This document shows, one piece after another, positions 36,712 to 63,052 of a stretch of DNA of 64,000 nt. Position 1 is the first letter of the stretch. Each line of letters begins with the position of its first letter. The DNA is from Phapecoctavirus DIJ07P2: sequence record OZ035771.1; one strand, 5' to 3'. The notes under the pieces are model-generated. The model was not told the origin of the DNA. It did not search any database and saw only the letters and a list, made by a program, of their open reading frames with translations. A program made the position numbers and the translations under genes.

Positions 36712-36713
36712 TA

Positions 36714-36740
36714 GAAGCCCCGAAAGGGGCTTTCTTTTTA
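36714..36740 (+). terminator. rho-independent terminator after collagen-like fiber gene
   Basis: GAAGCCCC-GAAA-GGGGCTT stem-loop followed by TCTTTTTA. Confidence 0.65.
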
Positions 36741-36752
36741 TGGAGGGTTTAA

Positions 36753-47815: not shown

Positions 47816-48094
47816 TTAAAATGGTTCGTTAGTCTCCATCATATATTCTGCTTCTAGTTCTTCCATGTGCTTTCTAAATTGGAAAGCAATTTCTGCTACA
47901 GTTACATTTAAATCTTTTTCAAAAACTTCTGTAGATCCTTCATAAAAACGAATACCGTCAATTAAAAGCCCTCCGTGGTAATCCCAATCACTTTCACGAG
48001 AAAGCGGATTAGGTTCTTCATAATAGTAATCCACCTCCACAACCAAGGCTTTCCCGTTATGAGTGGTGTATTCAAAATCAAAAGTGTTAATCAT
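47816..48094 (-). CDS. hypothetical protein
   Basis: 92 aa ORF, stop overlaps downstream start. Confidence 0.3.
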   Translation of the reverse strand: MINTFDFEYTTHNGKALVVEVDYYYEEPNPLSRESDWDYHGGLLIDGIRFYEGSTEVFEKDLNVTVAEIAFQFRKHMEELEAEYMMETNEPF

Positions 48095-49038
48095 TATAGC
48101 TCCTCAAATAAAAGTCTACGACGCTCATTCAACACATCAATGTGATAATGAGTCCTGACATACTTAGCTAATGCTAATCCTTTCTCCATGCAAACATCGG
48201 GAGCACTTAATAAGTATTCCGTAATATCTTTCCACTCGGAAGGTGTTTCAGCAAAGAATAACAAATCTTTAAACTCTTGTGTATGATAATTCTCACGAGG
48301 AGAGCAGATTAAAGGTAAACCCTTAGCACCTGCCTCAAGAATTTTAAGATTGCTTTTTGCATTATTAAACACGTTATCGACCAATGGTGCAAGACTGATT
48401 TGATGACCATCGTAAGATTCCATGTAGTTGGCATATGGTCTTACACCTTCATAAACACTAGTTGGTGCTACATTTTCTCTAATTACAGACCATTCACGAC
48501 TACTTAAAACTTCAGAATCCCTACGAAAACCACATATTGTAAGATCTTTACCAAAATCGGGCAAGATAGCCAAATCTTGTTTATGTGTTTCACTTCCAGC
48601 CCAGACTAATGGAGTTTTGGAGTAGCGATCACGGGTCAACACAAATTGACCTTCATCATAAGGAAGTCCATTAGGGATTATGTGCACATTATCATTGTAT
48701 TGTGAAAGTTCAACTTGCAAGGCAGGTGTCGTAGTTGTAACAAGATCACTGTGCTCTAAAAACCATTTTAAATGTTCACGAATACCTGATTCAAAAATAC
48801 CTTCTAACATGTGTCCTTTTGGAATAACTAAAGAGTCATCCAAATCCATAACCATTTTAAAGCCCAGGTTTTTAAGGGCTAAAAAGCCCTCTTTACCTTT
48901 TGTTGGCACTCCGTTAAAAACGAAAACGTTGTGTTTAGGTTGTGAAGAGAACTGCCTTGAGTAAGGCAGCACTACCCTATGGAAATCGCAGACACTATAA
49001 TTGATTCCGTTATGATTGTCAAGAATTATTTGTCCCAT
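48094..49038 (-). CDS. glycosyltransferase-like protein, paralog 1 (GT-B-like C-terminal motif)
   Basis: 314 aa; shares CDxHR.V.P, DLDD, GQF.L..DR.S.TP.VWAG, APLVDN.FNN.KSNLKILEAGAKG.P..CS and HVRTHY blocks with adjacent ORF 49046..50032. Confidence 0.35.
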   Translation of the reverse strand: MGQIILDNHNGINYSVCDFHRVVLPYSRQFSSQPKHNVFVFNGVPTKGKEGFLALKNLGFKMVMDLDDSLVIPKGHMLEGIFESGIREHLKWFLEHSDLVTTTTPALQVELSQYNDNVHIIPNGLPYDEGQFVLTRDRYSKTPLVWAGSETHKQDLAILPDFGKDLTICGFRRDSEVLSSREWSVIRENVAPTSVYEGVRPYANYMESYDGHQISLAPLVDNVFNNAKSNLKILEAGAKGLPLICSPRENYHTQEFKDLLFFAETPSEWKDITEYLLSAPDVCMEKGLALAKYVRTHYHIDVLNERRRLLFEEL

Positions 49039-49045
49039 ACTTCAC

Positions 49046-50032
49046 CTACAAACTTTCAATAACCTGGCGTCGCAATTCGTTTGCATCTGCCAGATTATAA
49101 TGTGTTCGAACATGTTCCGCTAAGAACAAGCCGCGATCTTCCCGATAGTTCGGATTTCGAAGAAGCTTAACAATTTCGTAATGCCATTCTGCTTTATTCT
49201 CTGCATAAGCAACAGCGCGAGCATCTACAGGGTTAAAATAAGGTAATACCTTAGAACAAACAATCGGAATACCTTTTGCCCCAGCTTCAAGGATTTTGAG
49301 ATTACTTTTACAATTATTAAAATCATTATCTACCAAAGGAGCTATAGCAATAGCATGACTTTCGTAAACACTCATGTAATTATCTAAATCTTTTACAGCA
49401 GCTTTATATTTGGCATTTGGTAAATTTCTACGGATTTTAATCCACTCTTGCCCTGTGATACTCTGCGAAGCTTCATACCCCGCAATAGTAAGAAGTTCAT
49501 CATCAAAAGTGTTAGAGACTAGTCGTAAATCGGGTTCGTGACTAGCACCTCCAGCCCATACAATAGGGGTACCGGATGAACGATCATTTGACAAAGTGAA
49601 TTGTCCACTATCAAAAGGAAGTGCATTTCGGATCACAACAACATTCCTATTTAAGTGACGGATCTTATATGCCAAGTATTCCGTAGTCACAATAACCACA
49701 TCAGCAAGCTTAACCATAGCCACAATAGCATGAGTGTTTGACTCGTATAAACTTGCCAAATAATGCTCTGGATTAAGTTGGTAGAAATCATCTAAATCTA
49801 CAACAATCTTAACACCTTGACGTTTCAGGGACAGAACATATTCTGCCCCTTTAGAATGAATACGGTTAAACACGACAACATCTTTCTTAGGCTGAAAATT
49901 ATTGTTGTTAAATGGTACAACAATACGATGATAATCACAACCACTGTGAGGTTTTGCATCAATTTTCAGTTTAGTCCATTTTTTATTTGACATGTGCCAG
50001 TGCCTCCTCATAAGAAATTCGGATTTTCCCAT
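49046..50032 (-). CDS. glycosyltransferase-like protein, paralog 2
   Basis: 328 aa; same conserved blocks as 48094..49038 (tandem paralogs); EAGAKGIPIVCS resembles the GT-B nucleotide-sugar binding segment. Confidence 0.35.
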   Translation of the reverse strand: MGKSEFLMRRHWHMSNKKWTKLKIDAKPHSGCDYHRIVVPFNNNNFQPKKDVVVFNRIHSKGAEYVLSLKRQGVKIVVDLDDFYQLNPEHYLASLYESNTHAIVAMVKLADVVIVTTEYLAYKIRHLNRNVVVIRNALPFDSGQFTLSNDRSSGTPIVWAGGASHEPDLRLVSNTFDDELLTIAGYEASQSITGQEWIKIRRNLPNAKYKAAVKDLDNYMSVYESHAIAIAPLVDNDFNNCKSNLKILEAGAKGIPIVCSKVLPYFNPVDARAVAYAENKAEWHYEIVKLLRNPNYREDRGLFLAEHVRTHYNLADANELRRQVIESL

Positions 50033-50666
50033 TTTTAATATCTTCTAAAGACGCTTTATATTCTTCCCAGTTAATGCCAATAGCAGCTTCTTTCTCTTCT
50101 TTTGTCAGATTAGCAAAAGGCATAGGATTGTTTCCAAAAACATCGTCTGGGTGGATATAAGCCATGATACGAAGTGGACAAGGTATTGCCTGAATACCCT
50201 GATTCAAACCAGCAGCTTTCAAACGGTGTACCCATTCAGCATCTTCAAAACCATAACCGTGAGTGTAAGGGCGGAAATAACCCATCTTCTCAACAACGGC
50301 ACGAGAATACATTGCAAATTGACACATTGCAAGTTCCCAGAGAATAACTTCTCCTTTACTCCCAACAACTTTATCTTTGAAATACTCCGGCATACCAAAG
50401 AAATCCCATCCTCCAGAGACAGCTTGATCTACAAAATATGTTTCCCATCCCTCCATGATTGGGTAGCAATCGTCGTCAAAAATAAACCAATAATCATAAC
50501 CTTCTTCATAAAACTGGTGCATAAGTTCATTCCTGGCGTAAGCTACACCTTTACGATCTGGATCGTTGAATACTCGAAAATCTGCATGTGGATCTGTTAC
50601 AAGATAGTCTTTAAGTGGACGGACACCTACAGTGATAACACCCACTCCGATTTTAATATTTTCCAT
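49983..50666 (-). CDS. GT-A-like glycosyltransferase
   Basis: 227 aa; DxD-type motif FIFDDDCYP and downstream GYGFEDAEW acidic motif typical of GT-A fold enzymes. Confidence 0.4.
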   Translation of the reverse strand: MENIKIGVGVITVGVRPLKDYLVTDPHADFRVFNDPDRKGVAYARNELMHQFYEEGYDYWFIFDDDCYPIMEGWETYFVDQAVSGGWDFFGMPEYFKDKVVGSKGEVILWELAMCQFAMYSRAVVEKMGYFRPYTHGYGFEDAEWVHRLKAAGLNQGIQAIPCPLRIMAYIHPDDVFGNNPMPFANLTKEEKEAAIGINWEEYKASLEDIKNGKIRISYEEALAHVK

Positions 50667-50674
50667 TTTCTCTC

Positions 50675-51238
50675 CTAGATAGTTTTACTGTGATCGTGAC
50701 AGTGTAATAAATGATGTATAGACCGTTGAGGATTTGTTTGACCTAATCTGTAAATGTGAAACAGATACATTCCCCGCATCAATCCTAACCTCTTTCCTTT
50801 TTCATGTAAAGTGCGAGAGAAAATTAGGTCGAATTGGATAGATTTTTCTTCGAAAGGAATTTCATTCCACAATGATTTTCTAAAAAGCAAAAAGAAACCT
50901 GCCAGAGGTGTTCCGAAAGGAACTTCTTCAACACTCACTTTATGATATTCTCTTGCAATCTTAGCATATTCTATATGGTTTAGAATATCTGGATCATCGT
51001 TAATTTGGTTAGAGAAAAGCTGATAACCACTACCTAACCTGTTACAAGTTGCACCTATTACATCAAAAGGCGGGTTTGACATAACAAGCTCTTCAAGCAT
51101 AGATGGTTGATCAGGTAGGAGGAACATTGTATCGGTATCTCTTAAGCACACCCAACTATCATCTGGAAGAACGGCAATAGCTTCATTGATAGCCTTGCCG
51201 ATATTTCCTGTCAGATAGGGAGTAATATAATAAATCAT
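50675..51238 (-). CDS. hypothetical protein, possibly second GT-A-like enzyme
   Basis: 187 aa; CLRDTDTMFL acidic DxD-like motif; same operon as the glycosyltransferase genes. Confidence 0.3.
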   Translation of the reverse strand: MIYYITPYLTGNIGKAINEAIAVLPDDSWVCLRDTDTMFLLPDQPSMLEELVMSNPPFDVIGATCNRLGSGYQLFSNQINDDPDILNHIEYAKIAREYHKVSVEEVPFGTPLAGFFLLFRKSLWNEIPFEEKSIQFDLIFSRTLHEKGKRLGLMRGMYLFHIYRLGQTNPQRSIHHLLHCHDHSKTI

Positions 51239-52562: not shown

Positions 52563-53165
52563 TTATGGACATTCATACCATTCTTTTTTACCACCGAAGG
52601 CCATCACCACATCACAAATATCCAGACCAGCTTTACCTACACCATATGCTTTCAGCTTCCATTCCCCATCTTCACGAACCAAGGAAGCCACGTGGCAGAT
52701 TGTGTTACCAGCTACTTCAGGAGCCAGGAAGTCAAAATCCAGAATTTCCACATTACGCTCGGAGTCGAAGATTTTAAGCATACCTTCAGAAGCATGACCA
52801 AAACGTTTCAGACCTGTATCATCATCAATGGTCAGAACAAAGGCAATCTCTTGTGCATCAGGAGAGATTTTAGCCAGAGTAATATCAATCTGCTCCATGC
52901 TGCCAGTCCCATCACGAACATCGTCACCAGCGAAGGTAGAACGTTCAGGATCAAACTTGTTAGCATAGCAAACCAGATGACGTGCGGACAGCATTTCAGG
53001 ATTGCCAGCGGCATTATGACGACAAACCAGTGCACTTACATCCAGATCCAGTTTAGAATCAGATTTCCAAGAGAATTCCAGGCGCAGTTCTTTCAGAGCC
53101 GGAGCAACTTTCTTCAGGGAAATTTTTTCGCTAGAGCCTTTTTTCAGGGAAATTTTATCAGTCAT
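52563..53165 (-). CDS. terD: TerD-family protein
   Basis: 200 aa; N-terminal duplicated KISLKK motif and overall TerD-like size and acidic pattern (FAGDDVRDGTGS, TIDDDTG); strongly host-optimal codon usage. Confidence 0.75.
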   Translation of the reverse strand: MTDKISLKKGSSEKISLKKVAPALKELRLEFSWKSDSKLDLDVSALVCRHNAAGNPEMLSARHLVCYANKFDPERSTFAGDDVRDGTGSMEQIDITLAKISPDAQEIAFVLTIDDDTGLKRFGHASEGMLKIFDSERNVEILDFDFLAPEVAGNTICHVASLVREDGEWKLKAYGVGKAGLDICDVVMAFGGKKEWYECP

Positions 53166-53180
53166 CTTTTGTCTCCTCTA

Positions 53181-53450
53181 TTATTTAAGTGTAATACCAG
53201 TTACAGTCAATTCTACTTCCAAAAGCTTAGATGTGTTTTGGATTGATACTAATTGTGCATGATGGTTTAGTTCTACAGCAGAATAATCATTTTCCCCATC
53301 ATCTACTTTTAAATAAACAATGATTTCACTAAGGTCTAAACCATTTTCGTCAAATGCATTTTCATAGACGAAAGTATCTCCTACATCCAAATCTTTAATG
53401 GTAAGGCATCGTTTATTTACTTTTTGCTCATCAATTTCGAAGTTTAACAC
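53181..53450 (-). CDS. small protein, paralog B of a duplicated family
   Basis: 89 aa; MLNFEIDEQK...DLDVGDTFVYENAFDENGLD...EVELTVTGITLK aligns with the protein at 54472..54750. Confidence 0.4.
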   Translation of the reverse strand: MLNFEIDEQKVNKRCLTIKDLDVGDTFVYENAFDENGLDLSEIIVYLKVDDGENDYSAVELNHHAQLVSIQNTSKLLEVELTVTGITLK

Positions 53451-53679
53451 TTCTTCCTCCTAATGTTATCTCCGGTTTGTATATACGAAGAATTATAGCA
53501 TTTTCATTTTCTTTGTCAACCCATTCTTCATAATCGGGCCATACATGAATCTCTACTCTACTTACAATATCTTCCATTCGCACAGTCCCAATGAAATACT
53601 CTTTGAGACTGCGCATAATGAAAGCTTCTCTCTCGCGCCAATAATTTTCTACGACTTGAGAGGCAAGCTCGTCGATCAT
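53431..53679 (-). CDS. hypothetical protein
   Basis: 82 aa ORF overlapping neighbours at both ends (translational coupling). Confidence 0.3.
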   Translation of the reverse strand: MIDELASQVVENYWREREAFIMRSLKEYFIGTVRMEDIVSRVEIHVWPDYEEWVDKENENAIILRIYKPEITLGGRSVKLRN

Positions 53680-54470
53680 TTTTTAGCACCTACTTTAACA
53701 ACCCACTCTCCGAACTCTTCAGATAAGAGTTTGTCATAAAGCTCTGAATCTGTCAAGTCTAAATCTTTAATGCCAATAAAACCAACATTATCATAAGCAT
53801 TTGCCAGTTCTTTCAGGAAGCCAAACTTCTCATTACCAACGCCAACCATGAACCAATAAATAGGTTTATTCTTATTCTCTTCAATAAGACGACGAACAGC
53901 ACTAGGATCACCATTCTCACCATCCGTCTGGAAGAATACAACACCAGGGGTAACGTCAGCACCTGGTTCAGATACAGCTACAACTTTTTCACGCTCTACA
54001 GACACTGTTTCAGTTTTACCAAGCAGACGATTAAAGAAGCCTTTCTTTGGAGCCTCCTCTTGTACCACTTGTTTAGTGGTAATATATTTGGTAACAGTGC
54101 CAAAATACTCATCGTAGATATCTGCCATTACAGGGGCGTAATTTGTTCCACCTCCGATACGAACATTGCGCATACATTTACCAACATAGTCATCGTAAAC
54201 GTCTGCTGTTGCTGGAGTAAGCTCTTGGGAACTCGTATTGAAGGCCCACATATCAATTTGTTGATTATCGTCGAACAGCATACCAAAAGGAAGCAGTTTA
54301 CCTACAAAATCACTCACTACCCCACTAGAATATAGGCCATGCATACTACCAGAAATATCTAGAGCACATGCTACACGAAGAACAATCTTACCTTCATTCA
54401 GGTTCTTATTCTTTTTCAGAGAGAAAGCAAGGTTTTCTTGACGTTTTTTCAGGCTGATTTTCTCGGACAT
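53676..54470 (-). CDS. vWA-domain protein with TerD-like N-terminus (TerY-like)
   Basis: 264 aa; N-terminal MSEKISLKK...FSLKK; MIDAS motif VACALDISGSM with downstream T and D residues (GGGTNY, FFQTDGENGD). Confidence 0.65.
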   Translation of the reverse strand: MSEKISLKKRQENLAFSLKKNKNLNEGKIVLRVACALDISGSMHGLYSSGVVSDFVGKLLPFGMLFDDNQQIDMWAFNTSSQELTPATADVYDDYVGKCMRNVRIGGGTNYAPVMADIYDEYFGTVTKYITTKQVVQEEAPKKGFFNRLLGKTETVSVEREKVVAVSEPGADVTPGVVFFQTDGENGDPSAVRRLIEENKNKPIYWFMVGVGNEKFGFLKELANAYDNVGFIGIKDLDLTDSELYDKLLSEEFGEWVVKVGAKK

Positions 54471-54471
54471 A

Positions 54472-54750
54472 TTATTTCTCCTTCTTAAGTGTAATATTGG
54501 TAACTTCTAAATCTACTTCCACCATATTTGTATCTGGCGGGATGCAATGAGTATAGCCTCGTTGTGCTAGTGATCCATTAATACAGATCGCACTGTTTGT
54601 GGAATTTTTAATGAACACCAAGTTACGGTAGGTATCCAACCCTGCGTCTTCATAGGCATCATAATACATGAATGTGTCCCCTATGCCAAGGTCTTCGAAA
54701 GCAATAGGTAAATCCTGACACTTTTCTTCTTGAATATTGAATCTAAACAC
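54472..54750 (-). CDS. small protein, paralog A of the duplicated family
   Basis: GTG start 5 nt after AGGAGG gives MFRFNIQEEK...DLGIGDTFMYYDAYEDAGLD...EVDLEVTNITLKKEK, collinear with 53181..53450. Confidence 0.4.
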   Translation of the reverse strand: MFRFNIQEEKCQDLPIAFEDLGIGDTFMYYDAYEDAGLDTYRNLVFIKNSTNSAICINGSLAQRGYTHCIPPDTNMVEVDLEVTNITLKKEK

Positions 54751-55306
54751 GCATACCTCCTCTACCAATTTTGAAGCCCAAATCGTAAGCTTCCTTAGTG
54801 ATCTTTTGTAACTCACTTATAGAAAGTGTTACAAGAGGATCATCTTCTTCAATTTCCATCTTGTCATCTTCTGTTTCAATGAGAGTATTATGCACTTTGT
54901 GATAAGGGTTGTCAACACGTTTAAACTTATTCTTTTCTGTGCTGAAAAAACAATCTGGATCTTCTTCACCATCACCCCAACCTTGGTTAGGATCTCCGTC
55001 AGATTGTTCTGTAGGGATTTCACCTGTAAAGTACTTTTCCAGCACCATAGCGATACCGTCTCTTGGATTTGAGGAATGCATTAAATCACAAACCTTACCC
55101 CAATCCATAGCCCATTCGAACCGTTCACGAACGCCATTTTCATCCTCCTTTCCAGAGAAAACACAACCATAACTATCATAGTTGCCATACATCTCTTCAA
55201 TAACAACACCATCCTTCAAAAGAAAGAGATAGCAAGGTGATCCGTCGAAAGAAGTAGAAAGGGCAGCTTTGCCCGATTCCTTACACAAAAAGCTAAAACA
55301 ACCCAT
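54743..55306 (-). CDS. hypothetical acidic protein
   Basis: 187 aa ORF; stop overlaps next start. Confidence 0.3.
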   Translation of the reverse strand: MGCFSFLCKESGKAALSTSFDGSPCYLFLLKDGVVIEEMYGNYDSYGCVFSGKEDENGVRERFEWAMDWGKVCDLMHSSNPRDGIAMVLEKYFTGEIPTEQSDGDPNQGWGDGEEDPDCFFSTEKNKFKRVDNPYHKVHNTLIETEDDKMEIEEDDPLVTLSISELQKITKEAYDLGFKIGRGGMRV

Positions 55307-55503
55307 TACAAACCCTCCTTCAGATTATCAAGAGCTATAGTGGTTTCACAAAAGTCTCCATACGCTTTATGATGTTCTAGAAAAGCTTCAGGTCCACCCC
55401 AATCATTATCTTGTGTATTCCAACCATCAATAAAAGCATCTTCAATGATTGTGATCAGTTCCTGTCGAGTCAACGTAATGGTATCAGGTTTTGGATTATG
55501 CAT
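55306..55503 (-). CDS. hypothetical small protein
   Basis: 65 aa ORF; start overlaps upstream stop (ATGCATAA). Confidence 0.25.
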   Translation of the reverse strand: MHNPKPDTITLTRQELITIIEDAFIDGWNTQDNDWGGPEAFLEHHKAYGDFCETTIALDNLKEGL

Positions 55504-55669
55504 CTTCTTCCTCCTCTAAAATACGAAACCCATAGTTACAATAGTCCTGAAAGGTTTCGTGTGCAAGATCTTCTATATCCTCTTGAGACATATCATCTTC
55601 AATTTCGATATCCACAACCTCATTGCATCCACACCAAGCAGTTTCAATATTCACTCGTAAAGTTTTCAT
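55496..55669 (-). CDS. hypothetical small acidic protein (57 aa)
   Basis: ORF below the track size cutoff; start overlaps upstream stop (ATGA), end overlaps next start; fits the chain of coupled small genes. Confidence 0.2.
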   Translation of the reverse strand: MKTLRVNIETAWCGCNEVVDIEIEDDMSQEDIEDLAHETFQDYCNYGFRILEEEEDA

Positions 55670-55872
55670 TCTTCTTCCTCATTAAATTCCACATCAGAAA
55701 TAACTTTAAATCTACCAAAGTTACGACAACCTTCATAGATATATCCATCACGACAAGCTGCAAAAATATCTGGAGTTTGTAGCTGGGTCATTGGGGCAAA
55801 GCGTTTCTCTTCGTCATAACGAACACCTATTTCTCCAGCTTGTTCGTCAAGCATGTATACACGGATTCTCAT
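55666..55872 (-). CDS. hypothetical small protein
   Basis: 68 aa ORF; start overlaps upstream stop. Confidence 0.25.
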   Translation of the reverse strand: MRIRVYMLDEQAGEIGVRYDEEKRFAPMTQLQTPDIFAACRDGYIYEGCRNFGRFKVISDVEFNEEEE

Positions 55873-56981
55873 TTACCCAACCCCTTCTTAACAGCGTCAA
55901 CCATCCCATCTTCGAGAGATTGAACTTCATTGATATAATCAACACGGGCAGCACGGGCTTCCGTATTGATGCGGTTAGTTTCTTCCAACATCTTAACCAA
56001 GTTTTCCTGATCGTGACGCAGAGTTTCAATATCCAACACTTGACGGTTAGCCAGTGCTGCTGCTTCGATCTGATTCTGTGTGGCAAGATCGCTACCCAGT
56101 TTAATTGCCAGGTTAAATTCATCAAGAACGTTATTCTGTGTCTCTGCGGCTTTCATTTGACGTAAGCTCTCAATATACATTGAGAAGTTAGCAGAGTAAG
56201 CAGGAATAACATTATTTACTATGTTACGCGCAGATCGCATTAAGCTTGCAGAAACTTTTTGCATACCTTGCACACGTGGTCCCATTTGGACACACAGTAG
56301 GCGCAATGCTTTTAAATCCGCAATACGAATCTCCAGAAGATCCAAAGTATCTCGGATCGCTTGTCGCTGTTCTACCGCATCTTCTGGAAGAGCAGCCAAA
56401 GCTTGTTCTTCTTTTTCATAGGTTGCTGTTAGAAGCTGCATATCTCGGTTCAAACTTGCAGCATATTGTCCAATAGCTTGATGTAGCTTTTCAAGATATA
56501 CCAAGGAATCTTCTTCTTTGCGAATATCCATTTGAAGGTTCTTTACCAACTCTTCAATACGGTTATTAACATTATCAAACTCCCCAAACAGGTCTTCTTT
56601 CATACCCATAACTTTTTTAATGAGTTTAGTAATACCTTTGCTTTGTTTAATAGAGTTTGGATCAAGTTGTTTTGCCTGTTTAATCAAAGCTGTGAGTCGT
56701 TCACTCATCTGATCGCCTTGATTACTACGTTGATGTTTTAATACCTCGGCATTCAAGGAACGCAAGGTTGTTCCTGCCTCTGCCCCGATCTCTTCGATCT
56801 CTTGTCGTGTCATAGAAGGTAAAACTGGAACTTCTTGCGGTGCCGCTGGTGCATAAACAGGACTGGCATCTAACACGCTTGGAGCGAATACAGATTTACT
56901 TGCATCTGTTGTTGCAGCAAATACGCTCATTTCAGGTTTCTTCTGACAGCCAGTAGCTGCTTTTAAAAATGGACTTGTCAT
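55869..56981 (-). CDS. TelA-like (toxic anion resistance family) alpha-helical protein
   Basis: 370 aa, predominantly helical/coiled-coil, size and genomic association with TerD/TerC consistent with TelA-type proteins; family assignment from memory, not searched. Confidence 0.4.
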   Translation of the reverse strand: MTSPFLKAATGCQKKPEMSVFAATTDASKSVFAPSVLDASPVYAPAAPQEVPVLPSMTRQEIEEIGAEAGTTLRSLNAEVLKHQRSNQGDQMSERLTALIKQAKQLDPNSIKQSKGITKLIKKVMGMKEDLFGEFDNVNNRIEELVKNLQMDIRKEEDSLVYLEKLHQAIGQYAASLNRDMQLLTATYEKEEQALAALPEDAVEQRQAIRDTLDLLEIRIADLKALRLLCVQMGPRVQGMQKVSASLMRSARNIVNNVIPAYSANFSMYIESLRQMKAAETQNNVLDEFNLAIKLGSDLATQNQIEAAALANRQVLDIETLRHDQENLVKMLEETNRINTEARAARVDYINEVQSLEDGMVDAVKKGLGK

Positions 56982-57568
56982 TCTTCATTCTCCTCTTCTG
57001 CATCTCTTATATATGGTGAAACACCGTACTCTTTAGCTACTTTAACCCAATCGTCCCATTTATACAACCATAATTTTCCTTCGGTCCCTTCTTTATCTGA
57101 TTTCAACCACATATTAGGTTGCTTACCTGGGTACATGCGATTAGGTTTACGATTATAACCTCTAACACATCTTGTCGCAAACCTATCTACCAGAACAAGA
57201 ACATATTTATATTCGTGGTTCAACGGCTCTTTGGAAGTGGCTTTAGGATTAGCCCCTAACTCTGCTGCCAGTTTTTGCCAATGAGCACCGTGTCTACTAA
57301 ACTTACCCATACAACCATCAATAGCATGAGCAATTTCGTGCTTCATTGTATCCACGATCATATCTCTTGTAGAGTTCTTATGCAAGTGCCAATTTACAAC
57401 AACAATTTTATCTCGGTAATTGCACCAACCAAAAGAGTTATTCACTTTGTTTCTAACGCAAGCTTTATATCCTGCTTCACGTAACATGTTGTAGTAAACA
57501 GGAAAATCTTCTTTTATTTCCTGCATCACTTCCCACCACAAGAGTTGCAAGTCTCTCTCGGTATGCAT
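56978..57568 (-). CDS. SprT-like zinc metallopeptidase
   Basis: 196 aa; HEIAHAIDG (HExxH) zinc-binding motif in a SprT-like context; basic C-terminal region. Confidence 0.45.
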   Translation of the reverse strand: MHTERDLQLLWWEVMQEIKEDFPVYYNMLREAGYKACVRNKVNNSFGWCNYRDKIVVVNWHLHKNSTRDMIVDTMKHEIAHAIDGCMGKFSRHGAHWQKLAAELGANPKATSKEPLNHEYKYVLVLVDRFATRCVRGYNRKPNRMYPGKQPNMWLKSDKEGTEGKLWLYKWDDWVKVAKEYGVSPYIRDAEEENEE

Positions 57569-57571
57569 AAC

Positions 57572-58165
57572 TTACACCTTAAAAGTGAAATGCGTGGTCG
57601 TGGCTTCAAAATCAGGACCAGATAAACGTGCACTGAAATCTGAAATATTTGTAATTAAAAAGCTTTTATGCATACCTAACACAGCCACGCTTTCAATATC
57701 TTCTACTAACATTTCAATCATGTTAGAAACATGGCTGAACGTAGGGTTTTGTTTTTTGATGGTGTAGAAAGAAAGATTCCCACCTGCTGTATAAGATACC
57801 TCTTCAAAATCTTTAATCGTATATTGTGTGCCATCAGTAAAGAAAATGGTAGCTTTATTAGTAGCACGTTTCTTGTTTTTTGGTCCTTTTTTACGTTTAC
57901 TGCGAGTAGGCAAACCGTTTGGGAACACCATAGCTACAAATTCTTCAGGAGAAACCTCCTTACCGAAATCATAACCATAAGAAACAGCGTCTATAAACTC
58001 GTCGTCTTCATTTTTAAAATAATGAAAATAGGGCCAATTTGAGAGATTATCGAGCATCTTATGCTCATCCACAGCAGAGAACGTATCCCTCAAAGCACGT
58101 GTGATTTGCAAAGCATTAGGCAAACTTTTAACACCTGTAATGGAAGTACGAATAGAAATTGTCAT
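57572..58165 (-). CDS. hypothetical protein
   Basis: 197 aa ORF; basic KRKKGPKNKKR segment. Confidence 0.3.
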   Translation of the reverse strand: MTISIRTSITGVKSLPNALQITRALRDTFSAVDEHKMLDNLSNWPYFHYFKNEDDEFIDAVSYGYDFGKEVSPEEFVAMVFPNGLPTRSKRKKGPKNKKRATNKATIFFTDGTQYTIKDFEEVSYTAGGNLSFYTIKKQNPTFSHVSNMIEMLVEDIESVAVLGMHKSFLITNISDFSARLSGPDFEATTTHFTFKV

Positions 58166-58179
58166 TGTTTTTCTCCTTA

Positions 58180-58617
58180 TTAACGTCGCTTGCTACGAGA
58201 TGAACTCTTTTTACTTAAAGGGCTATTGTAAGATTTACGAGTTGTATAGCTACTATTTGTTTTAAAAGTTTGTCTCGGCTTTTCATAAGTTTTTGTCTCT
58301 TGTTTAGGCTTACCATAAAAATTAGTTTTCGGTTTAGGTGTATTATAATGCTTATTAATAATCGTTCTGTTATCGTTATAATCCCCGCCACTACGATTAC
58401 TACCACCGCTCATCATATGCCCTAACAACATACCTGTAGCAAACTCACCAACACCGCTACTACTAGAACCGCCACCATTGTTGATAATAGTTGTATCTCC
58501 ATCAGATCCTTGTTGGGCGTATTGTTGAGGAGGTTGTTGGTATTGTGCAGGATTTGTTTCATCCTCGCAAGCTGTTAAAAAGATACAACCAATTAAAATC
58601 AGGGCTAGTTTTTTCAT
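58180..58617 (-). CDS. Gly-rich basic lipoprotein
   Basis: Start at internal ATG after GAGGA RBS; signal peptide MKKLALILIGCIFLTAC with lipobox; Q/G/S-rich then K/R-rich C-terminus. Confidence 0.4.
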   Translation of the reverse strand: MKKLALILIGCIFLTACEDETNPAQYQQPPQQYAQQGSDGDTTIINNGGGSSSSGVGEFATGMLLGHMMSGGSNRSGGDYNDNRTIINKHYNTPKPKTNFYGKPKQETKTYEKPRQTFKTNSSYTTRKSYNSPLSKKSSSRSKRR

Positions 58618-58804
58618 ATTTGCTTTCCTCATTTTGACTATTAATACATCTGTGTTTGAAATCTCCAGAGAAGCAATAAATTTGCTCTCCATCTCGGTAT
58701 AAACTCACTTTACTGCCGTTGATTACGCTTGTCAATACAAAAATTACAACAAACAACCCTATTGCAAAACAGATATTTTCAAACACAACCAACAAGTATT
58801 TCAT
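58559..58804 (-). CDS. small membrane protein (uncertain; overlaps lipoprotein gene start)
   Basis: 81 aa with N-terminal TM helix ICFAIGLFVVIFVLTSVI; overlaps 58180..58617 by about 58 nt. Confidence 0.2.
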   Translation of the reverse strand: MKYLLVVFENICFAIGLFVVIFVLTSVINGSKVSLYRDGEQIYCFSGDFKHRCINSQNEESKYEKTSPDFNWLYLFNSLRG

Positions 58805-59151
58805 TTTAAAAATACCTCATCATCAGTTTCATTATCCCAGAAGAACAAATCCCAACCATTTGGATCGTTCCATTTGGCTGCTGGAGAAGTCCATATTTGC
58901 TCGATATCAATATTCAAAACTTCACCGTTTCGTTTTGAAACAGCTTTAGTTAATTCCCAACGGGATACAGGCTCCACTTCCCCTGAACCACTCCCACAAC
59001 AAGCTACCACATTAGGAGGCAAATTAATTGGATCTTTGGTCACGATCATAACGCTTACCCCAGGGTAAACTTTTGAAAGATAATCTAAAACGTAATCCAC
59101 ATCACCAGATAAATCCCAAACAAGTTCTTGAATTTCATCAAAATTATTCAT
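58801..59151 (-). CDS. hypothetical acidic protein
   Basis: 116 aa ORF, first gene downstream of terC terminator. Confidence 0.3.
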   Translation of the reverse strand: MNNFDEIQELVWDLSGDVDYVLDYLSKVYPGVSVMIVTKDPINLPPNVVACCGSGSGEVEPVSRWELTKAVSKRNGEVLNIDIEQIWTSPAAKWNDPNGWDLFFWDNETDDEVFLK

Positions 59152-59159
59152 AAGTCTCT

Positions 59160-59186
59160 CCTATAAAATAGCCTCCCGAAGGAGGC
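59160..59186 (-). terminator. rho-independent terminator downstream of terC
   Basis: GCCTCC-CGAA-GGAGGC hairpin; on minus strand followed by TATTTTATAG. Confidence 0.55.
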
Positions 59187-59193
59187 TCATCTA

Positions 59194-60168
59194 TTAAACA
59201 GCAGCTTCTTCTTTTTCAGGGAAGATAAAGCTTGCAATAACACCAAGAGCTAATGTGCCTAGAACAATCATCAGACTTACGTTAGGGGAAATATCATGCG
59301 GGAGGAATGACCACTTGGCATGAAGTGTTTCACCGAACGGGTGATACATAAGTTTAGCACCGACAAACACCAGAACCACAGCAACAGCTTTCTCTAAGTG
59401 AACCAGATATTTCACAGCTACACTTAACACAAAGAAAAGTGCACGTAAACCAAGAACAGCCATCAACATTGCAGAATAAACTAGCAGAGGTTCTTGTGTC
59501 ACACCGATCACAGCCGGAACTGAATCAAAAGAGAAGACAATATCTGTAAGCTCAATTACAAACACACAAAGAAGAGCAGGAGTTGCATATTTAATACCAT
59601 TCTTAATGGTAATGAACTTTTCACCATCCAGTGCATTGTGCACAGGCAGAACTTTACCTACTAAACGAACAGCCCAATGCTTAGAGTAATCAATATCCTC
59701 TTCTTCGTCACCACCTTTGATGATAGCCACGGCAGACCAAGCTACAATCAAACCGAACAACACTTGGACCGACCAATGAAGGTTAAACAAAGCGGTCCCT
59801 GCTGCAACAAAAATACCTCGGAAGACAATGGCTCCTGCAATCCCCCAAAGTAGAATCTTATGTTGGAGATGTGTGCTCTTAATTCCAAAGCTTGCAAAAA
59901 TTGCCATGAACACCATTAGGTTATCTACAGAAAGACTCTTTTCCAACACATAGCCACTTAGGAAAAGCGCGGCAAACTCTTTACCATGTTCTACCCAAAT
60001 GAATGCGTAATACCCTAAAGCTAAAGCAATCCAAAAAACAGACCAAAGCAAAGCAGATTTAATTCCAATTTCTTTATTCTCTTTATGACCAAAGAAATCG
60101 ATACCAATAGACAATGCTAAAATACCAACTAAAACAACTACATCAATAATTGGGAAACCGAGTTGCAT
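59194..60168 (-). CDS. terC: TerC-family integral membrane protein
   Basis: 324 aa; multiple TM helices; signature YVLEKSLSVDNLMVF and second DxxFxxDSVPA-type segment (DIVFSFDSVPAVIG) typical of TerC family. Confidence 0.8.
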   Translation of the reverse strand: MQLGFPIIDVVVLVGILALSIGIDFFGHKENKEIGIKSALLWSVFWIALALGYYAFIWVEHGKEFAALFLSGYVLEKSLSVDNLMVFMAIFASFGIKSTHLQHKILLWGIAGAIVFRGIFVAAGTALFNLHWSVQVLFGLIVAWSAVAIIKGGDEEEDIDYSKHWAVRLVGKVLPVHNALDGEKFITIKNGIKYATPALLCVFVIELTDIVFSFDSVPAVIGVTQEPLLVYSAMLMAVLGLRALFFVLSVAVKYLVHLEKAVAVVLVFVGAKLMYHPFGETLHAKWSFLPHDISPNVSLMIVLGTLALGVIASFIFPEKEEAAV

Positions 60169-60185: not shown

Positions 60186-60244
60186 GCGGGGAACTATTCC
60201 CCGCTTCATGTGATATATCTTACTCTTTTTAAGAACTATGTCAA
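60186..60244 (-). promoter_or_regulatory. terC promoter (TTGACA-16-TAAGAT) with leader hairpin
   Basis: On minus strand TTGACA (plus 60239-60244), 16 bp spacer, TAAGAT; transcript leader contains GCGGGGAA-TAG-TTCCCCGC hairpin about 12 nt upstream of GAGGAG RBS. Confidence 0.4.
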
Positions 60245-60247
60245 CAC

Positions 60248-60469
60248 TTATTTTGTTGAATGAGAGGAAAAGATTCCTCGTAATACCGCCAAAATAAACG
60301 AAACACAAACCACGGTCCAGAAGGTTACTGGGACAGTGATATCTGCATGACCCATAACTTCAGCAACATAGTTGTAAGCCAGCAACAGTAACCAAGCTGG
60401 AATCAAACTAAGCATAAAAGCAATAACAAAAAAGCTTACCACTGCAACAATACCTGCAAAAACACCCAT
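60248..60469 (-). CDS. small membrane protein (2 TM helices)
   Basis: 73 aa, almost entirely hydrophobic (VAVVSFFVIAFMLSLIPAWLLLLAY; TFWTVVCVSFILAVL). Confidence 0.35.
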   Translation of the reverse strand: MGVFAGIVAVVSFFVIAFMLSLIPAWLLLLAYNYVAEVMGHADITVPVTFWTVVCVSFILAVLRGIFSSHSTK

Positions 60470-60481
60470 ACTAATCTCCTC

Positions 60482-60955
60482 TTAAAGTTTATAAATAGTC
60501 ACATCGTGACCTGTTTTTACTAAAGTTTCTTCAATCATCACTTGGATGATAGCCCAATTACCTCCGGCATGTCCCGCTCCAATCATAGGTAAACCGATCT
60601 TACATTTTTGGTCACGGAGAAGCAAATCATTAGCCATAGCTATTAGTGCATCGTAAAGTGCATCATAGTCCAACTGACGACCTTTACTATTGTATCCATA
60701 ACGATACTGTCCATAAAGGTTGTATACCATAGGGTTAGGATAATCTTCTGGTTCCCCTAAACTAAAAGAACCAAGCTTTTTCTGGTTTCCTGCTCCTGTA
60801 GCTAAATCTGCTTCGTATGCATATGGAAACGCATATTTTATTTGTGGGGCAATACCTGCCCCCATATTACACATACAGTTGCAACAATGAGCAATAACAG
60901 TTACTTCACCTGCTTTAGCGGCATCAATAAGATTACCTGTTTTCATTTTAAGCAT
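60482..60955 (-). CDS. macro domain protein (TARG1/OARD1-like ADP-ribose hydrolase fold)
   Basis: Start at ATG after AAGGAG (MLKMKTGN...); VIAHCCNCMCNMGAGIA and GLPMIGAGHAGGNW...DVTIYKL parallel the TARG1-type macro pattern (HCIS.DC.MGAGIA ... RIGCGLD ... ITVYTL). Confidence 0.6.
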   Translation of the reverse strand: MLKMKTGNLIDAAKAGEVTVIAHCCNCMCNMGAGIAPQIKYAFPYAYEADLATGAGNQKKLGSFSLGEPEDYPNPMVYNLYGQYRYGYNSKGRQLDYDALYDALIAMANDLLLRDQKCKIGLPMIGAGHAGGNWAIIQVMIEETLVKTGHDVTIYKL

Positions 60956-60968
60956 TTTTAGCTCCTTA

Positions 60969-61796
60969 TTACAGAATGTGTTGTTTTGTGTAACGATCCA
61001 AGAATTCAAAGTTTTCAGCATACTTTGAAATTCGGTTGTAACCTTCTCCCAAGCATCCAAAGAAAAGTTGCTCTACATAGTAGTGTGGCAATTGACTAAG
61101 AATGATTTTGAAGTCTTCATGATTTTGGCCCATAAGATATTTAATAGGACGAACAAGACACTGTGCATCACGTTCTTCATTAATCATTTTAACAAACGCT
61201 TCTGGTGTATTAATGTAGTTAAAATTCAGTTTAGCTTCGGTATCTGCTTGATTACCTTCATATTTTGCAAAATACAGGAAGTAAACATCATTTTTAACTT
61301 GATTTTCATCAAGGATCTCAATCAGTTTGTCTTCATGCGTTCCAGTGATATTTACATCATCAATGAATACAAGCTTCTTATCACCCCAGAATTCTTTGTT
61401 ACAGTAGAATGTATCCCCATCAATAAGTTTCTTACGACTAGCTTTATCCAAGAAGCCATAATCGTTAATATAGCTAACTTTACGATGAATAATATCCAGT
61501 TCTGCTGAACGACCTTGATTATATTGTGATTGCAACATGTTAAAGTAATTAATAAAATGATCTGTCATCATTGTTGCAGCATTATGCACATGGTTGTAAG
61601 GAGAAGGAATGATAACAAATTGTTCCCCAATATGTTTCATTGCCACTTGAGCAAAAAACTGAAGTGCCAATTCTTTACCCATACGACGCGCGGCTTGGTT
61701 ACTACCAAATTTCAATTTTGAATAATCTTGGATATCAAAAGTAGCAGTTTCCAGGTCATCAAATTTATTTGCAAAAATTTGAGTTTGATTACGCAT
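60969..61796 (-). CDS. type I phosphoribosyltransferase (PRTase)
   Basis: 275 aa; PRPP-binding loop KLVFIDDVNITGTHEDKL (hydrophobic-DD-hydrophobic-TGxT); start overlaps HAD gene stop. Confidence 0.55.
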   Translation of the reverse strand: MRNQTQIFANKFDDLETATFDIQDYSKLKFGSNQAARRMGKELALQFFAQVAMKHIGEQFVIIPSPYNHVHNAATMMTDHFINYFNMLQSQYNQGRSAELDIIHRKVSYINDYGFLDKASRKKLIDGDTFYCNKEFWGDKKLVFIDDVNITGTHEDKLIEILDENQVKNDVYFLYFAKYEGNQADTEAKLNFNYINTPEAFVKMINEERDAQCLVRPIKYLMGQNHEDFKIILSQLPHYYVEQLFFGCLGEGYNRISKYAENFEFLDRYTKQHIL

Positions 61797-62445
61797 TTAC
61801 AATTTCTCCTCTTTTAAGTTTCTCTAGTAAGTCGTTAGGGTTCTTAATATGACAGAAGTTAAATCCTAAGTCAACACATTTTCCATCATATTCTTCACTA
61901 TCGCCTACGTGCAATACTTCGTGCCCTAACAGAGGGATCGGAGAATATGTGAGCGTGCGAGCAAAGAATCGCGGATCTGGTTTACAAAGTAAAGCTTCAT
62001 CCGAGAAATGGGTGAACTCAAAACAATTCCAACTATCAAACTTACAAGCACGACGCAGGATATCCCCTGATATAAAGTTGGTATTGCTCTTAATACTCAA
62101 ATCATAACGTCCCGAAAGATACAGCAAGTACATCGGCAGATCCACGGCTACGTGTGGTGGAAACTTAAGGAACCACTGTTCACACTCGAAACGAAGCTTT
62201 GCAGACTTCCAAGGTGTTATCCCAAGTTCAGAACCAAGTCTTTCCCAGGCGTATGCTGCACACTCGGCTTTGCCTTGAAGTGCTGCATTATCCAGTTCCT
62301 TTTTGATCTTCTTATAAGCTGCTCTTGCTTCCACTTCCGTAATATCTCCATATTTTGCGATAGTCCAGGCTCGCATGTCTGCGTAATTGGAGTTTGCTGT
62401 GATCAGTGTGTTCCATACATCAAAAGAGATATGTTTAATAGTCAT
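61789..62445 (-). CDS. HAD-superfamily hydrolase (atypical motif I)
   Basis: 218 aa; motif I ISFDVWNTL (second Asp replaced), motif III CKPDPRFF, motif IV LHVGDSEEYD. Confidence 0.55.
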   Translation of the reverse strand: MTIKHISFDVWNTLITANSNYADMRAWTIAKYGDITEVEARAAYKKIKKELDNAALQGKAECAAYAWERLGSELGITPWKSAKLRFECEQWFLKFPPHVAVDLPMYLLYLSGRYDLSIKSNTNFISGDILRRACKFDSWNCFEFTHFSDEALLCKPDPRFFARTLTYSPIPLLGHEVLHVGDSEEYDGKCVDLGFNFCHIKNPNDLLEKLKRGEIVNA

Positions 62446-62446
62446 A

Positions 62447-63052
62447 TTAAGCCCACCATGCGTCTAAGTTAAGATTACTGTCCACTACCACTTGTTCTAT
62501 GTGGTAGCCTTTTATCTGTATCCCACTGTTCAAGAGCATATCATACGCTTCATTGAAACGCAACTTATCTTCTGCGGAATATAAGCGAGCATTATAAAAT
62601 CGGTAATCAATTTCTTCAGCATTAGAAGAAATACGGAAGAAGTTTGTTTCTACTTCGGGATCACTTGCTGAAGTCTTAATGTGAACTTCTCCATAATTTT
62701 CTTTACTTAGATCCATGAAAAGAACACAGGCAACATGTTTAAACATTCGTTCCAGTTTGTAACGAACAACATTGAAACCTGCATTCTCAAGTTTTTCTAC
62801 ACACTGCAACATTAAAGTAGTGTCGAGATCGCTTTGATACTTTGTTAACATACGATCACGTTGAGACTTTGTATCCCGATGTAAATCAATTGTTGTGCAT
62901 TTGGCACCAATAATCTTAGCTGCTTTCATCAACTCTTCAGAACTAACGTTAGATAAAGTAAGATGAAAATGGGCTTTCCACACTTTTTTAGCAGGGACAC
63001 CAAAAGATTTATCCCCATTATTCGGCATGTTGACTACTACACTATGTTGCAT
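62447..63052 (-). CDS. hypothetical protein; weak resemblance to 2H phosphoesterase (HxT motif)
   Basis: 201 aa; AHFHLTLSN contains an H-x-T-x motif but the second motif is not convincing. Confidence 0.25.
   Translation of the reverse strand: MQHSVVVNMPNNGDKSFGVPAKKVWKAHFHLTLSNVSSEELMKAAKIIGAKCTTIDLHRDTKSQRDRMLTKYQSDLDTTLMLQCVEKLENAGFNVVRYKLERMFKHVACVLFMDLSKENYGEVHIKTSASDPEVETNFFRISSNAEEIDYRFYNARLYSAEDKLRFNEAYDMLLNSGIQIKGYHIEQVVVDSNLNLDAWWA

Follow-up and report, generated by a model that had tools for sequence, protein, structure and literature searches.

Which ADP-ribose linkage would be cleaved by the small macro-domain protein encoded at positions 60482-60955 of Phapecoctavirus DIJ07P2, and is this protein bound in function to the genes among which it lies? 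The stretch analysed here (the window) comprises 64,000 nucleotides of sequence record OZ035771.1. An initial annotation had described the protein as a TARG1-like macro domain, linked to a neighbouring phosphoribosyltransferase (PRTase)/HAD pair, that might reverse ADP-ribosylation-based immunity. In this study, the gene was assigned to the phage Tk.4/AdfM/Adpp family (PHROG 335), and we propose that its product is a stand-alone, catalytically competent macro hydrolase. By analogy with characterised relatives, its most likely role would be the erasure of DarT2-type thymidine ADP-ribosylation from single-stranded phage DNA (ssDNA), a reading in which we have moderate confidence. The window belongs to a phAPEC8-like Phapecoctavirus, an E. 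coli myovirus of about 150 kb from the Stephanstirmvirinae, and over the 6 kb around the macro gene it shares 97-98% identity with phages PNJ1809-36, nepoznato, EF1-1 and phAPEC8. The macro gene is an ordinary addition to a known and very common phage counter-defence family. Its interest is modest, since the family is common and counter-defence roles for it have already been published.

The macro gene, its fold and its active site

The features of the gene that carry the argument are as follows; the residue equivalences were taken from alignments.

60482-60955, minus strand: macro-domain gene of the phage Tk.4/AdfM/Adpp family (PHROG 335), 157 amino acids, stop codon included
60962-60967, minus strand: Shine-Dalgarno sequence AAGGAG, read from the sequence, 7 nt upstream of the macro ATG and within the 13-nt spacer that follows the PRTase_3 stop codon (60969-60971)
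60878-60889, minus strand: codons His23-Cys24-Cys25-Asn26, with His23 at the position of SCO6735 His24 and Asn26 at that of SCO6735 Asn27
60857-60859, minus strand: codon Ala33 in the MGAGIA motif, at the position of SCO6735 Lys34
60707-60709, minus strand: codon Gln83 in NLYGQY, at the position of SCO6735 Gln85
60560-60580, minus strand: codons Gly126-Gly132 (GAGHAGG), the phosphate-binding loop, with Ala130 at the position of TARG1 Asp125

The mechanically called open reading frame runs on the minus strand from a TTG at 61060 to 60482. In the family alignment the start shared by all homologues is the Met encoded at 60955, and the ATG stands in the context TAA-TAAGGAGCTAAAA-ATG. Because the homologues agree on this start and AAGGAG lies upstream of it, 60482-60955 is the right gene, and the coordinates given in the initial annotation were borne out.

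Macro-domain identity is well beyond chance. The Pfam Macro model (PF01661) matched with an E-value of 3.3e-5 and 24.2 bits, above its cut-off of 22, and PHROG 335, labelled 'phosphatase', matched with 3.7e-54. Among solved chains, phmmer retrieved SCO6735 (5e3b, 7e-13), BT1257 (9e-9), Thermus DarG (1.6e-6) and TARG1/OARD1 (8e-6), and a family profile built from 26 sequences matched BT1257 (3e-22), SCO6735 (5e-19), TARG1 (7e-16), DarG (4e-11) and Poa1p (6.5e-11). An AlphaFold2 model of the protein reached a predicted local distance difference test score (pLDDT) of 92.9 and a predicted template modelling score (pTM) of 0.90. When this model was searched with Foldseek, TARG1 was the top match (E 1.2e-11, template modelling (TM) scores 0.80/0.89), followed by BT1257, DarG, Poa1p and SCO6735. 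The predicted model thus has the three-layer alpha/beta macro fold, with TM scores of 0.74-0.89 to these five structures. The description as TARG1-like therefore stands for fold and class, on which Pfam, solved chains and model agree, and fails at the active site, where Gln83 and Ala130 replace the TARG1 catalytic residues Lys84 and Asp125.

The catalytic residues of TARG1 chemistry, the loss of which the initial annotation had taken as evidence against its proposal, are thus indeed missing, and those of the SCO6735 type are present. Loss of the TARG1 pair does not equal inactivity, because SCO6735 functions with the same Gln. In SCO6735, mutagenesis showed that Gln85, which takes the structural place of TARG1 Lys84 and DarG Lys80, is essential; Asn27 is required to position this catalytic Gln, Gly128 is needed as well, and His24 is close to the site (PMC9411070). 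In the window protein, His23, Asn26, Gln83 and Gly126/128/132 are all present and are invariant or nearly so across 26 homologues (Asn26 invariant, His23 nearly so), and T2 Tk.4 and the Adpp protein of phage Gary likewise have Gln at the position of Gln83. His129 is a lineage-specific substitution for the Leu of the family. The extended mobile loop was likewise found: after YGQ, the profile alignment requires a 5-residue gap in TARG1 and none in SCO6735 or BT1257. Since the SCO6735-type constellation and the extended loop are all in place, the window protein looks, by its sequence, catalytically competent through a lysine-independent mechanism.

The alleles of the gene are mosaic. The macro gene is 88-89% identical at the nucleotide level to those of phAPEC8 and EF1-1, and the other genes of the compared run are 97-99.8% identical, with the exception of the gene for a 73-aa membrane protein (81% to phAPEC8, though 99.5% to EF1-1). 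The divergent patch covers codons 26-90, especially 60700-60900, and contains many synonymous and non-synonymous changes. At the protein level the gene is an exact chimera, with a match to cluster P0001 over residues 1-100 (one difference) and to phAPEC8 over residues 100-157; no phage record carried this allele above 91% (tblastn, 50,697 records). Variation is concentrated at the surface, in residues 52-76 and 105-118, as well as at two positions close to the active site, 33 (Ala/Lys) and 129 (His/Tyr/Leu/Phe), the latter adjacent to the TARG1 Asp125 position. The many synonymous changes and the clean descent from two known types indicate recombination as the source of the excess divergence, and positive selection was rejected as its cause. 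Mosaic, divergent alleles fit a recombining arms-race gene and are no proof on the substrate. A second highly divergent patch, with an insertion or deletion relative to phAPEC8, lies at about 55400-55900, upstream of TelA, as further local mosaicism in this operon region.

Probable substrate and alternatives

Homologues of the PHROG 335 type were detected by tblastn in 2,892 of 50,697 phage records, including the T-even and rV5 Tk.4 proteins and those of Felix O1-like phages, and macro domains were reported in 41% of myoviruses (Iyer et al. 2022, PMC9503650). In T4, tk.4 was the sole transposon-sequencing hit that sensitised the phage to DarTG2; a clean knockout confirmed the effect and the gene was named AdfM (preprint 10.1101/2025.11.20.689424). 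Its T2 counterpart aligns with the window protein at 38% identity over 124 aa (E 1e-20), with the Gln aligned. SCO6735 is faster than DarG or TARG1 at removing thymidine-linked ADP-ribose from ssDNA, and it rescues cells from DarT; SCO6735 and TARG1 also strip Glu/Asp-linked ADP-ribose from protein, with a strong preference of SCO6735 for DNA (PMC9411070). PhiKZ AdfM, a Lys-type phage macro protein, removes DarT2 marks in vitro (PMC13309987). The proposal that a phage copy could reverse DarT-type DNA ADP-ribosylation is therefore established for the relatives T4 Tk.4 (against DarTG2) and SCO6735, and by analogy it may hold here. An anti-DarT2 role is favoured because that of T4 Tk.4 is the only experimentally supported role in the family that is independent of NARP1.

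It is tempting to picture the reaction as follows. The ADP-ribose moiety would be bound in the cleft between the Gly-rich loops MGAGIA and GAGHAGG, and the substituent at C1'' of the distal ribose would be cleaved without a catalytic lysine, as in SCO6735: Asn26 would hold Gln83, which in turn would position both the distal ribose and an activated water. Removal of DarT2-type ADP-ribose from thymidines of single-stranded phage DNA would restore replication. Soluble C1'' derivatives such as ADPR-1''-phosphate (ADPR, ADP-ribose) would probably be hydrolysed too in vitro.

Several observations weigh against this reading. The role is predicted from relatives, and the support for T4 AdfM comes from a preprint with genetic data only. 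The lysines with which SCO6735 positions DNA are not conserved, Lys34 being Ala33 and Lys89 being unaligned, opposite Gly87; Arg85, Lys91 and Arg93 lie close to this Gly87, and position 33 is Lys in four sister alleles. The window protein is slightly acidic (isoelectric point (pI) 6.3), as is T2 Tk.4. As a proxy for DNA binding the pI was discarded, as it does not discriminate (T2 Tk.4 5.9, Gary Adpp 7.8). The higher-scoring characterised full-length relative is Gary Adpp, 40% identical over 157 residues (E 9e-34, Gln aligned), and a neighbour-joining tree does not group the window protein with T4 Tk.4, nor with Gary. Finally, Namat and/or Adps, the partners of Adpp, lie within 6 kb in 31 of the best 80 IMG/VR macro loci, and both in 25.

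These last points lead to the alternative that survives best, which we regard as possible but doubtful, namely that the protein converts ADPR-1''-phosphate, formed by NAD+ phosphorolysis by aRES/RES toxins, to ADP-ribose and so feeds some route that rebuilds NAD+. The RES-domain defence aRES yields ADPR-1''-phosphate, and in Vibrio phage Gary this compound is turned into ADPR by KNV71_gp137 (Adpp), which lets NARP1 rebuild NAD+ (10.64898/2026.01.28.702374). The identity to this purified enzyme extends over the full length, aRES is present in E. coli, Adps and Namat accompany many of the closest viral loci, and close homologues lie in phage NAD islands. The initial annotation had also suggested the processing of ADP-ribose derivatives, and Adpp provides a precedent for it; here such an activity is conceivable by the same analogy.

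The tree built from 94 sequences places the window protein, together with other Stephanstirmvirinae and Seunavirus sequences, inside a single star-like phage clade that is sister to SCO6735/BT1257, a bacterial subclass of the TARG1/ALC1-like macro domains, and in which NARP1-linked members are scattered. Membership of the PHROG 335/Tk.4/AdfM/Adpp family is shown by this position, by the PHROG match and by the similarity to Gary Adpp and T2 Tk.4. Because the tree is star-like and its NARP1-linked members are polyphyletic, it is uninformative on function, and assigning an AdfM or an Adpp function from it was rejected. All three Gln-type phage proteins (the window protein, T4-type Tk.4 and Gary Adpp) match the same solved structures. 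Sequence and tree cannot tell anti-DarT from ADPR-1''-phosphate activity; the scatter of NARP1-linked macro proteins suggests that the latter is probably general to the family, and both activities may be.

What makes the Adpp-like role less favoured is genetic context. No Adps or Namat homologue was found in the window or in the full EF1-1 genome (tblastn with E-values up to 1, and annotation), so that a NARP1-dependent role would have to do without its partners. ADPR alone would not restore NAD+, and in the published system the anti-aRES effect needs all three of Adps, Adpp and Namat, any single deletion abolishing it (10.64898/2026.01.28.702374). A NARP1 pathway elsewhere in the phage was considered and rejected on the same annotation and EF1-1 genome search. 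PRTase_3 as a stand-in for Namat or Adps was likewise discarded: it shows no homology to them at E-values up to 1, it is a ComF-like type I PRTase, and it is always paired with the HAD nucleotidase, also in Sinorhizobium/Ensifer. The macro gene is a lone gene in the related large coliphages Seunavirus FENT2, rV5 and T2, which lack NARP1. Outside the Stephanstirmvirinae lineage, NAD-related genes are the commonest neighbours of the closest homologues, and annotated NARP1-macro examples occur in Thalassavirus, Otagovirus and Pakpunavirus.

Homologues of 50-52% identity were also seen on contigs of uncultured large phages (L131, 4522-5669; L129, 5001-5911), where they either follow a NADAR gene immediately or occur as a tandem pair of macro genes, within islands of the layout NUDIX-NAMPT-...-Macro-...-SIR2 that hold NAMPT-like, NUDIX, HAD_SAK_2, NT5C and SIR2 genes. 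Such islands may combine anti-DarT1 and anti-DarT2 functions, or may serve NAD salvage.

A housekeeping scavenger is unlikely. On this explanation the protein would remove O-acetyl-ADP-ribose, or ADPR-1''-phosphate or its cyclic phosphate, arising from a phage Sir2 or from RNA repair. EF1-1 does encode Sir2 and RNA ligase/phosphoesterase genes, and homologues occur in the SIR2-containing islands; TARG1-class macro domains deacylate O-acetyl-ADP-ribose, Poa1p, found with the family profile, dephosphorylates ADPR-1''-phosphate, and soluble ADP-ribose derivatives were proposed as the preferred substrates of phage macro domains (Iyer et al. 2022, PMC9503650). However, Sir2 lies about 100 kb away in the EF1-1 genome, no enzyme of the KptA/Tpt1 type was seen, and the mosaic, fast-diverging alleles would be left unexplained. 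Reversal of RNA or protein ADP-ribosylation, such as mRNA modification of the CmdTAC type or marks left on Glu/Asp by toxin or phage ADP-ribosyltransferases, is very unlikely: mRNA-ADP-ribosylating defences exist in E. coli and the side activity of SCO6735 and TARG1 on protein would permit it, but no phage relative is known to act in this way and the preference of SCO6735 is for DNA.

The neighbouring genes and the HAD-PRTase_3 module

The macro gene is embedded in a run of minus-strand genes which, from 5' to 3', encode NrdD, NrdG, a small open reading frame, u201, HAD, PRTase_3, the macro protein and a 73-aa membrane protein, followed by TerC between a promoter-like site, where phAPEC8 also has an annotated promoter, and a terminator-like hairpin. 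Further downstream follow SprT-like, TelA, vWA-TerF-like and TerD genes. The main features are:

62447-63052, minus strand: u201, 201 aa, of unknown family, with two ferredoxin-like halves and conserved HxHxT and ExHxK motifs
61789-62445, minus strand: nucleotidase-like phosphatase of HAD family IA, the obligate partner gene upstream of PRTase_3
60969-61796, minus strand: PRTase_3 (Pfam PF15610, 9e-42), a ComF-like type I phosphoribosyltransferase with the phosphoribosyl pyrophosphate (PRPP)-type motif VFIDDVNITGTH
60248-60469, minus strand: predicted membrane protein of 73 aa (PHROG 16065), 12 nt downstream of the macro stop codon and the last gene before the TerC promoter-like site
59194-60168, minus strand: TerC membrane protein, preceded by a promoter-like site of its own (60217-60244) and followed by a terminator-like hairpin (59170-59187)
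55869-56981, minus strand: TelA of the phage Ter cluster
53676-54470, minus strand: vWA-TerF of the same cluster
52563-53165, minus strand: TerD of the same cluster

The PRTase_3 stop codon precedes the macro ATG by 13 nt, HAD and PRTase_3 overlap by 8 nt, and on the coding strand there is no terminator-like site between them. The linkage to the PRTase/HAD pair that the initial annotation had described is thus real as anatomy. As a functional tie it found no support, since the macro gene is adjacent to the pair in one phage lineage only. This was seen in a set of 33 loci with PRTase_3 homologues, drawn from viral contigs, metagenomes and the genomes of bacteria. In 32 of these, HAD is the gene immediately upstream of PRTase_3; Stephanstirmvirinae and Sinorhizobium/Ensifer chromosomes are among them. 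In XaC1-like jumbo phages the pair stands beside RNA ligase, DUF2828, a CCA-adding enzyme and NUDIX, and on a 350-kb contig it lies inside TelA-vWA-TerC-...-TerD. The macro gene is next to the pair only in contigs of the Stephanstirmvirinae type, on which profile hidden Markov models agree. None of the 16 viral loci outside this type has an adjacent macro gene (one has it about 6 kb away), and no macro homologue was found within 7 kb in the 11 bacterial loci, a near-identical contig from a metagenome-assembled genome being left out. Across the 33 loci, the macro gene is therefore not conserved wherever the Ter-associated module occurs. Even among relatives the association is loose: on a related 153-kb contig (IMGVR_UViG_3300041405_000148) the macro gene lies about 10 kb from HAD-PRTase_3, and on contigs L018 and L019 the two are separated by one more gene. 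HAD and PRTase_3 thus constitute a two-gene module in their own right, and the macro gene is separate cargo that was inserted alongside it in one lineage. It would be co-transcribed with the upstream u201-HAD-PRTase_3 genes and yet be functionally independent of them.

These data bear on a further alternative, in which the macro protein is the last enzyme of a Ter-linked u201-HAD-PRTase_3-macro pathway that makes or trims a ribosylated, 'nucleoside-like' small molecule. The four genes run head to tail with spacers of 1-13 nt or overlaps and with no terminator between them, and the same order is found in Phapecoctavirus, in Justusliebigvirus and in related contigs with protein identities as low as about 50%. 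Anantharaman, Iyer and Aravind reportedly predicted in 2012 that PRTase_3 and HAD make a nucleoside-like metabolite in Ter systems, and the HAD-PRTase_3 module is consistent with such Ter-linked enzymes. We nevertheless consider the pathway improbable, given the constancy of the pair and the looseness of the macro gene, and given that nearly all of the phage records with the macro family lack PRTase_3. The same small probability is assigned to a bolder form of it, in which the Stephanstirmvirinae macro gene was recruited, with u201, the HAD nucleotidase and the ComF-like PRTase_3, into a four-gene pathway that acts with Ter proteins. Such a pathway would build or recycle a small molecule derived from ADP-ribose or ribose phosphate, possibly as an undescribed route of NAD+/ADPR salvage or of immune-signal destruction that replaces NARP1. 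The part of the macro protein in it would be to free ADPR from a conjugate, ADPR-1''-phosphate or some other, and a ribosyl-pyrophosphate intermediate would be used by the PRTase-fold enzyme. The suggestion that the macro protein processes derivatives produced by the adjacent PRTase/HAD enzymes is unsupported, as the module is independent and adjacent in one lineage.

Some further observations were made on the surrounding genes. The Ter-type cluster (52563-60168), which includes a SprT-like metallopeptidase, is common to Justusliebigvirus and is shared in part by Otagovirus phiPsa374, in which TelA lies about 3 kb from NARP1-macro genes. A 13-kb contig (JAEZZU010000022.1, L117) of the metagenome-assembled 'Proteobacteria bacterium OH_PFB_59' encodes u201, PRTase_3 and NrdG proteins that are 99-100% identical to those of the window and a HAD protein that is 77% identical; it is evidently Phapecoctavirus DNA mis-binned as bacterial. 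Four consecutive glycosyltransferase genes on the minus strand (48094-51238; in EF1-1, 35468-38746) adjoin the primase/helicase genes. Elsewhere in EF1-1 the annotation gives a dTDP-rhamnose-type sugar-nucleotide pathway, the phage Sir2 and a DprA-like gene. Taken together, these genes hint at glycosylation of DNA or surface and at NAD-linked functions.

Significance and comparison with known systems

A widespread 'hypothetical protein/phosphatase' of phAPEC8-like coliphages, which are therapeutic candidates, is placed here in a family with anti-DarTG2 and anti-aRES (ADPR-1''-phosphate) activities, and the favoured anti-DarT2 role predicts that phAPEC8-like phages resist DarT2-type DNA ADP-ribosylation. 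A Gln-type active site alone cannot separate the two family activities; the mosaic alleles that vary at positions 33 and 129 offer a natural mutant series for substrate choice. The conceptual addition is small, since it is already in the literature that phage macro proteins erase DarT marks and ADPR-1''-phosphate.

Among phage proteins, T4 Tk.4 (AdfM) resembles the window protein as a stand-alone macro protein of about 155 aa, assigned to the same PHROG 335, from a large virulent coliphage without NARP1 neighbours, and it conserves the Asn and the Gln of YxQ. However, only the core of the T4-type proteins aligns (residues 21-142), their loop after the Gln is shorter, and they belong to another subclade of the tree, shared with rV5 Tk.4; T2 Tk.4 has vs/tk genes as its neighbourhood, whereas the window gene has HAD-PRTase_3 and TerC. 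Gary Adpp has the same length, the same long loop and the same constellation of His, Asn, Gln and Gly loop, but it is encoded between Adps and Namat and needs both against aRES, and the window phage has neither.

The best sequence matches among solved structures, SCO6735 and BT1257 (PDB 5e3b, 2fg1/2afc), share Gln in place of Lys, the His/Asn pair, a GxGLAGG-type loop and the extended mobile loop; in contrast to the window protein they are bacterial, chromosomal and basic (pI 8.7-9.7 versus 6.3), and identity is about 26-27%. Human TARG1/OARD1 is the top structural match of the predicted model and has an identical MGAGIA motif, but carries Lys84/Asp125 where the window protein has Gln83/Ala130, and the loop after the Gln is 5 residues longer in the latter. 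DarG of Thermus and Mycobacterium and PhiKZ AdfM are thymidine-ADP-ribose hydrolases on DNA of the same macro class, with Lys-type active sites (K80, K78). In DarG the macro domain is fused to a C-terminal domain that binds DarT, and the darT gene lies next to it, whereas the window protein is a macro domain alone; the NCBIfam DarG equivalog matches it in the macro part only, with E 1.1e-9 and 38.1 bits, below the cut-off of 250, and the neighbours of its gene are PRTase_3 and the 73-aa membrane protein. Yeast Poa1p (PDB 6lfq), an ADPR-1''-phosphate phosphatase, matches the predicted fold with a TM score of 0.82, but is eukaryotic, about 20% identical and part of a pathway that handles a by-product of tRNA splicing.

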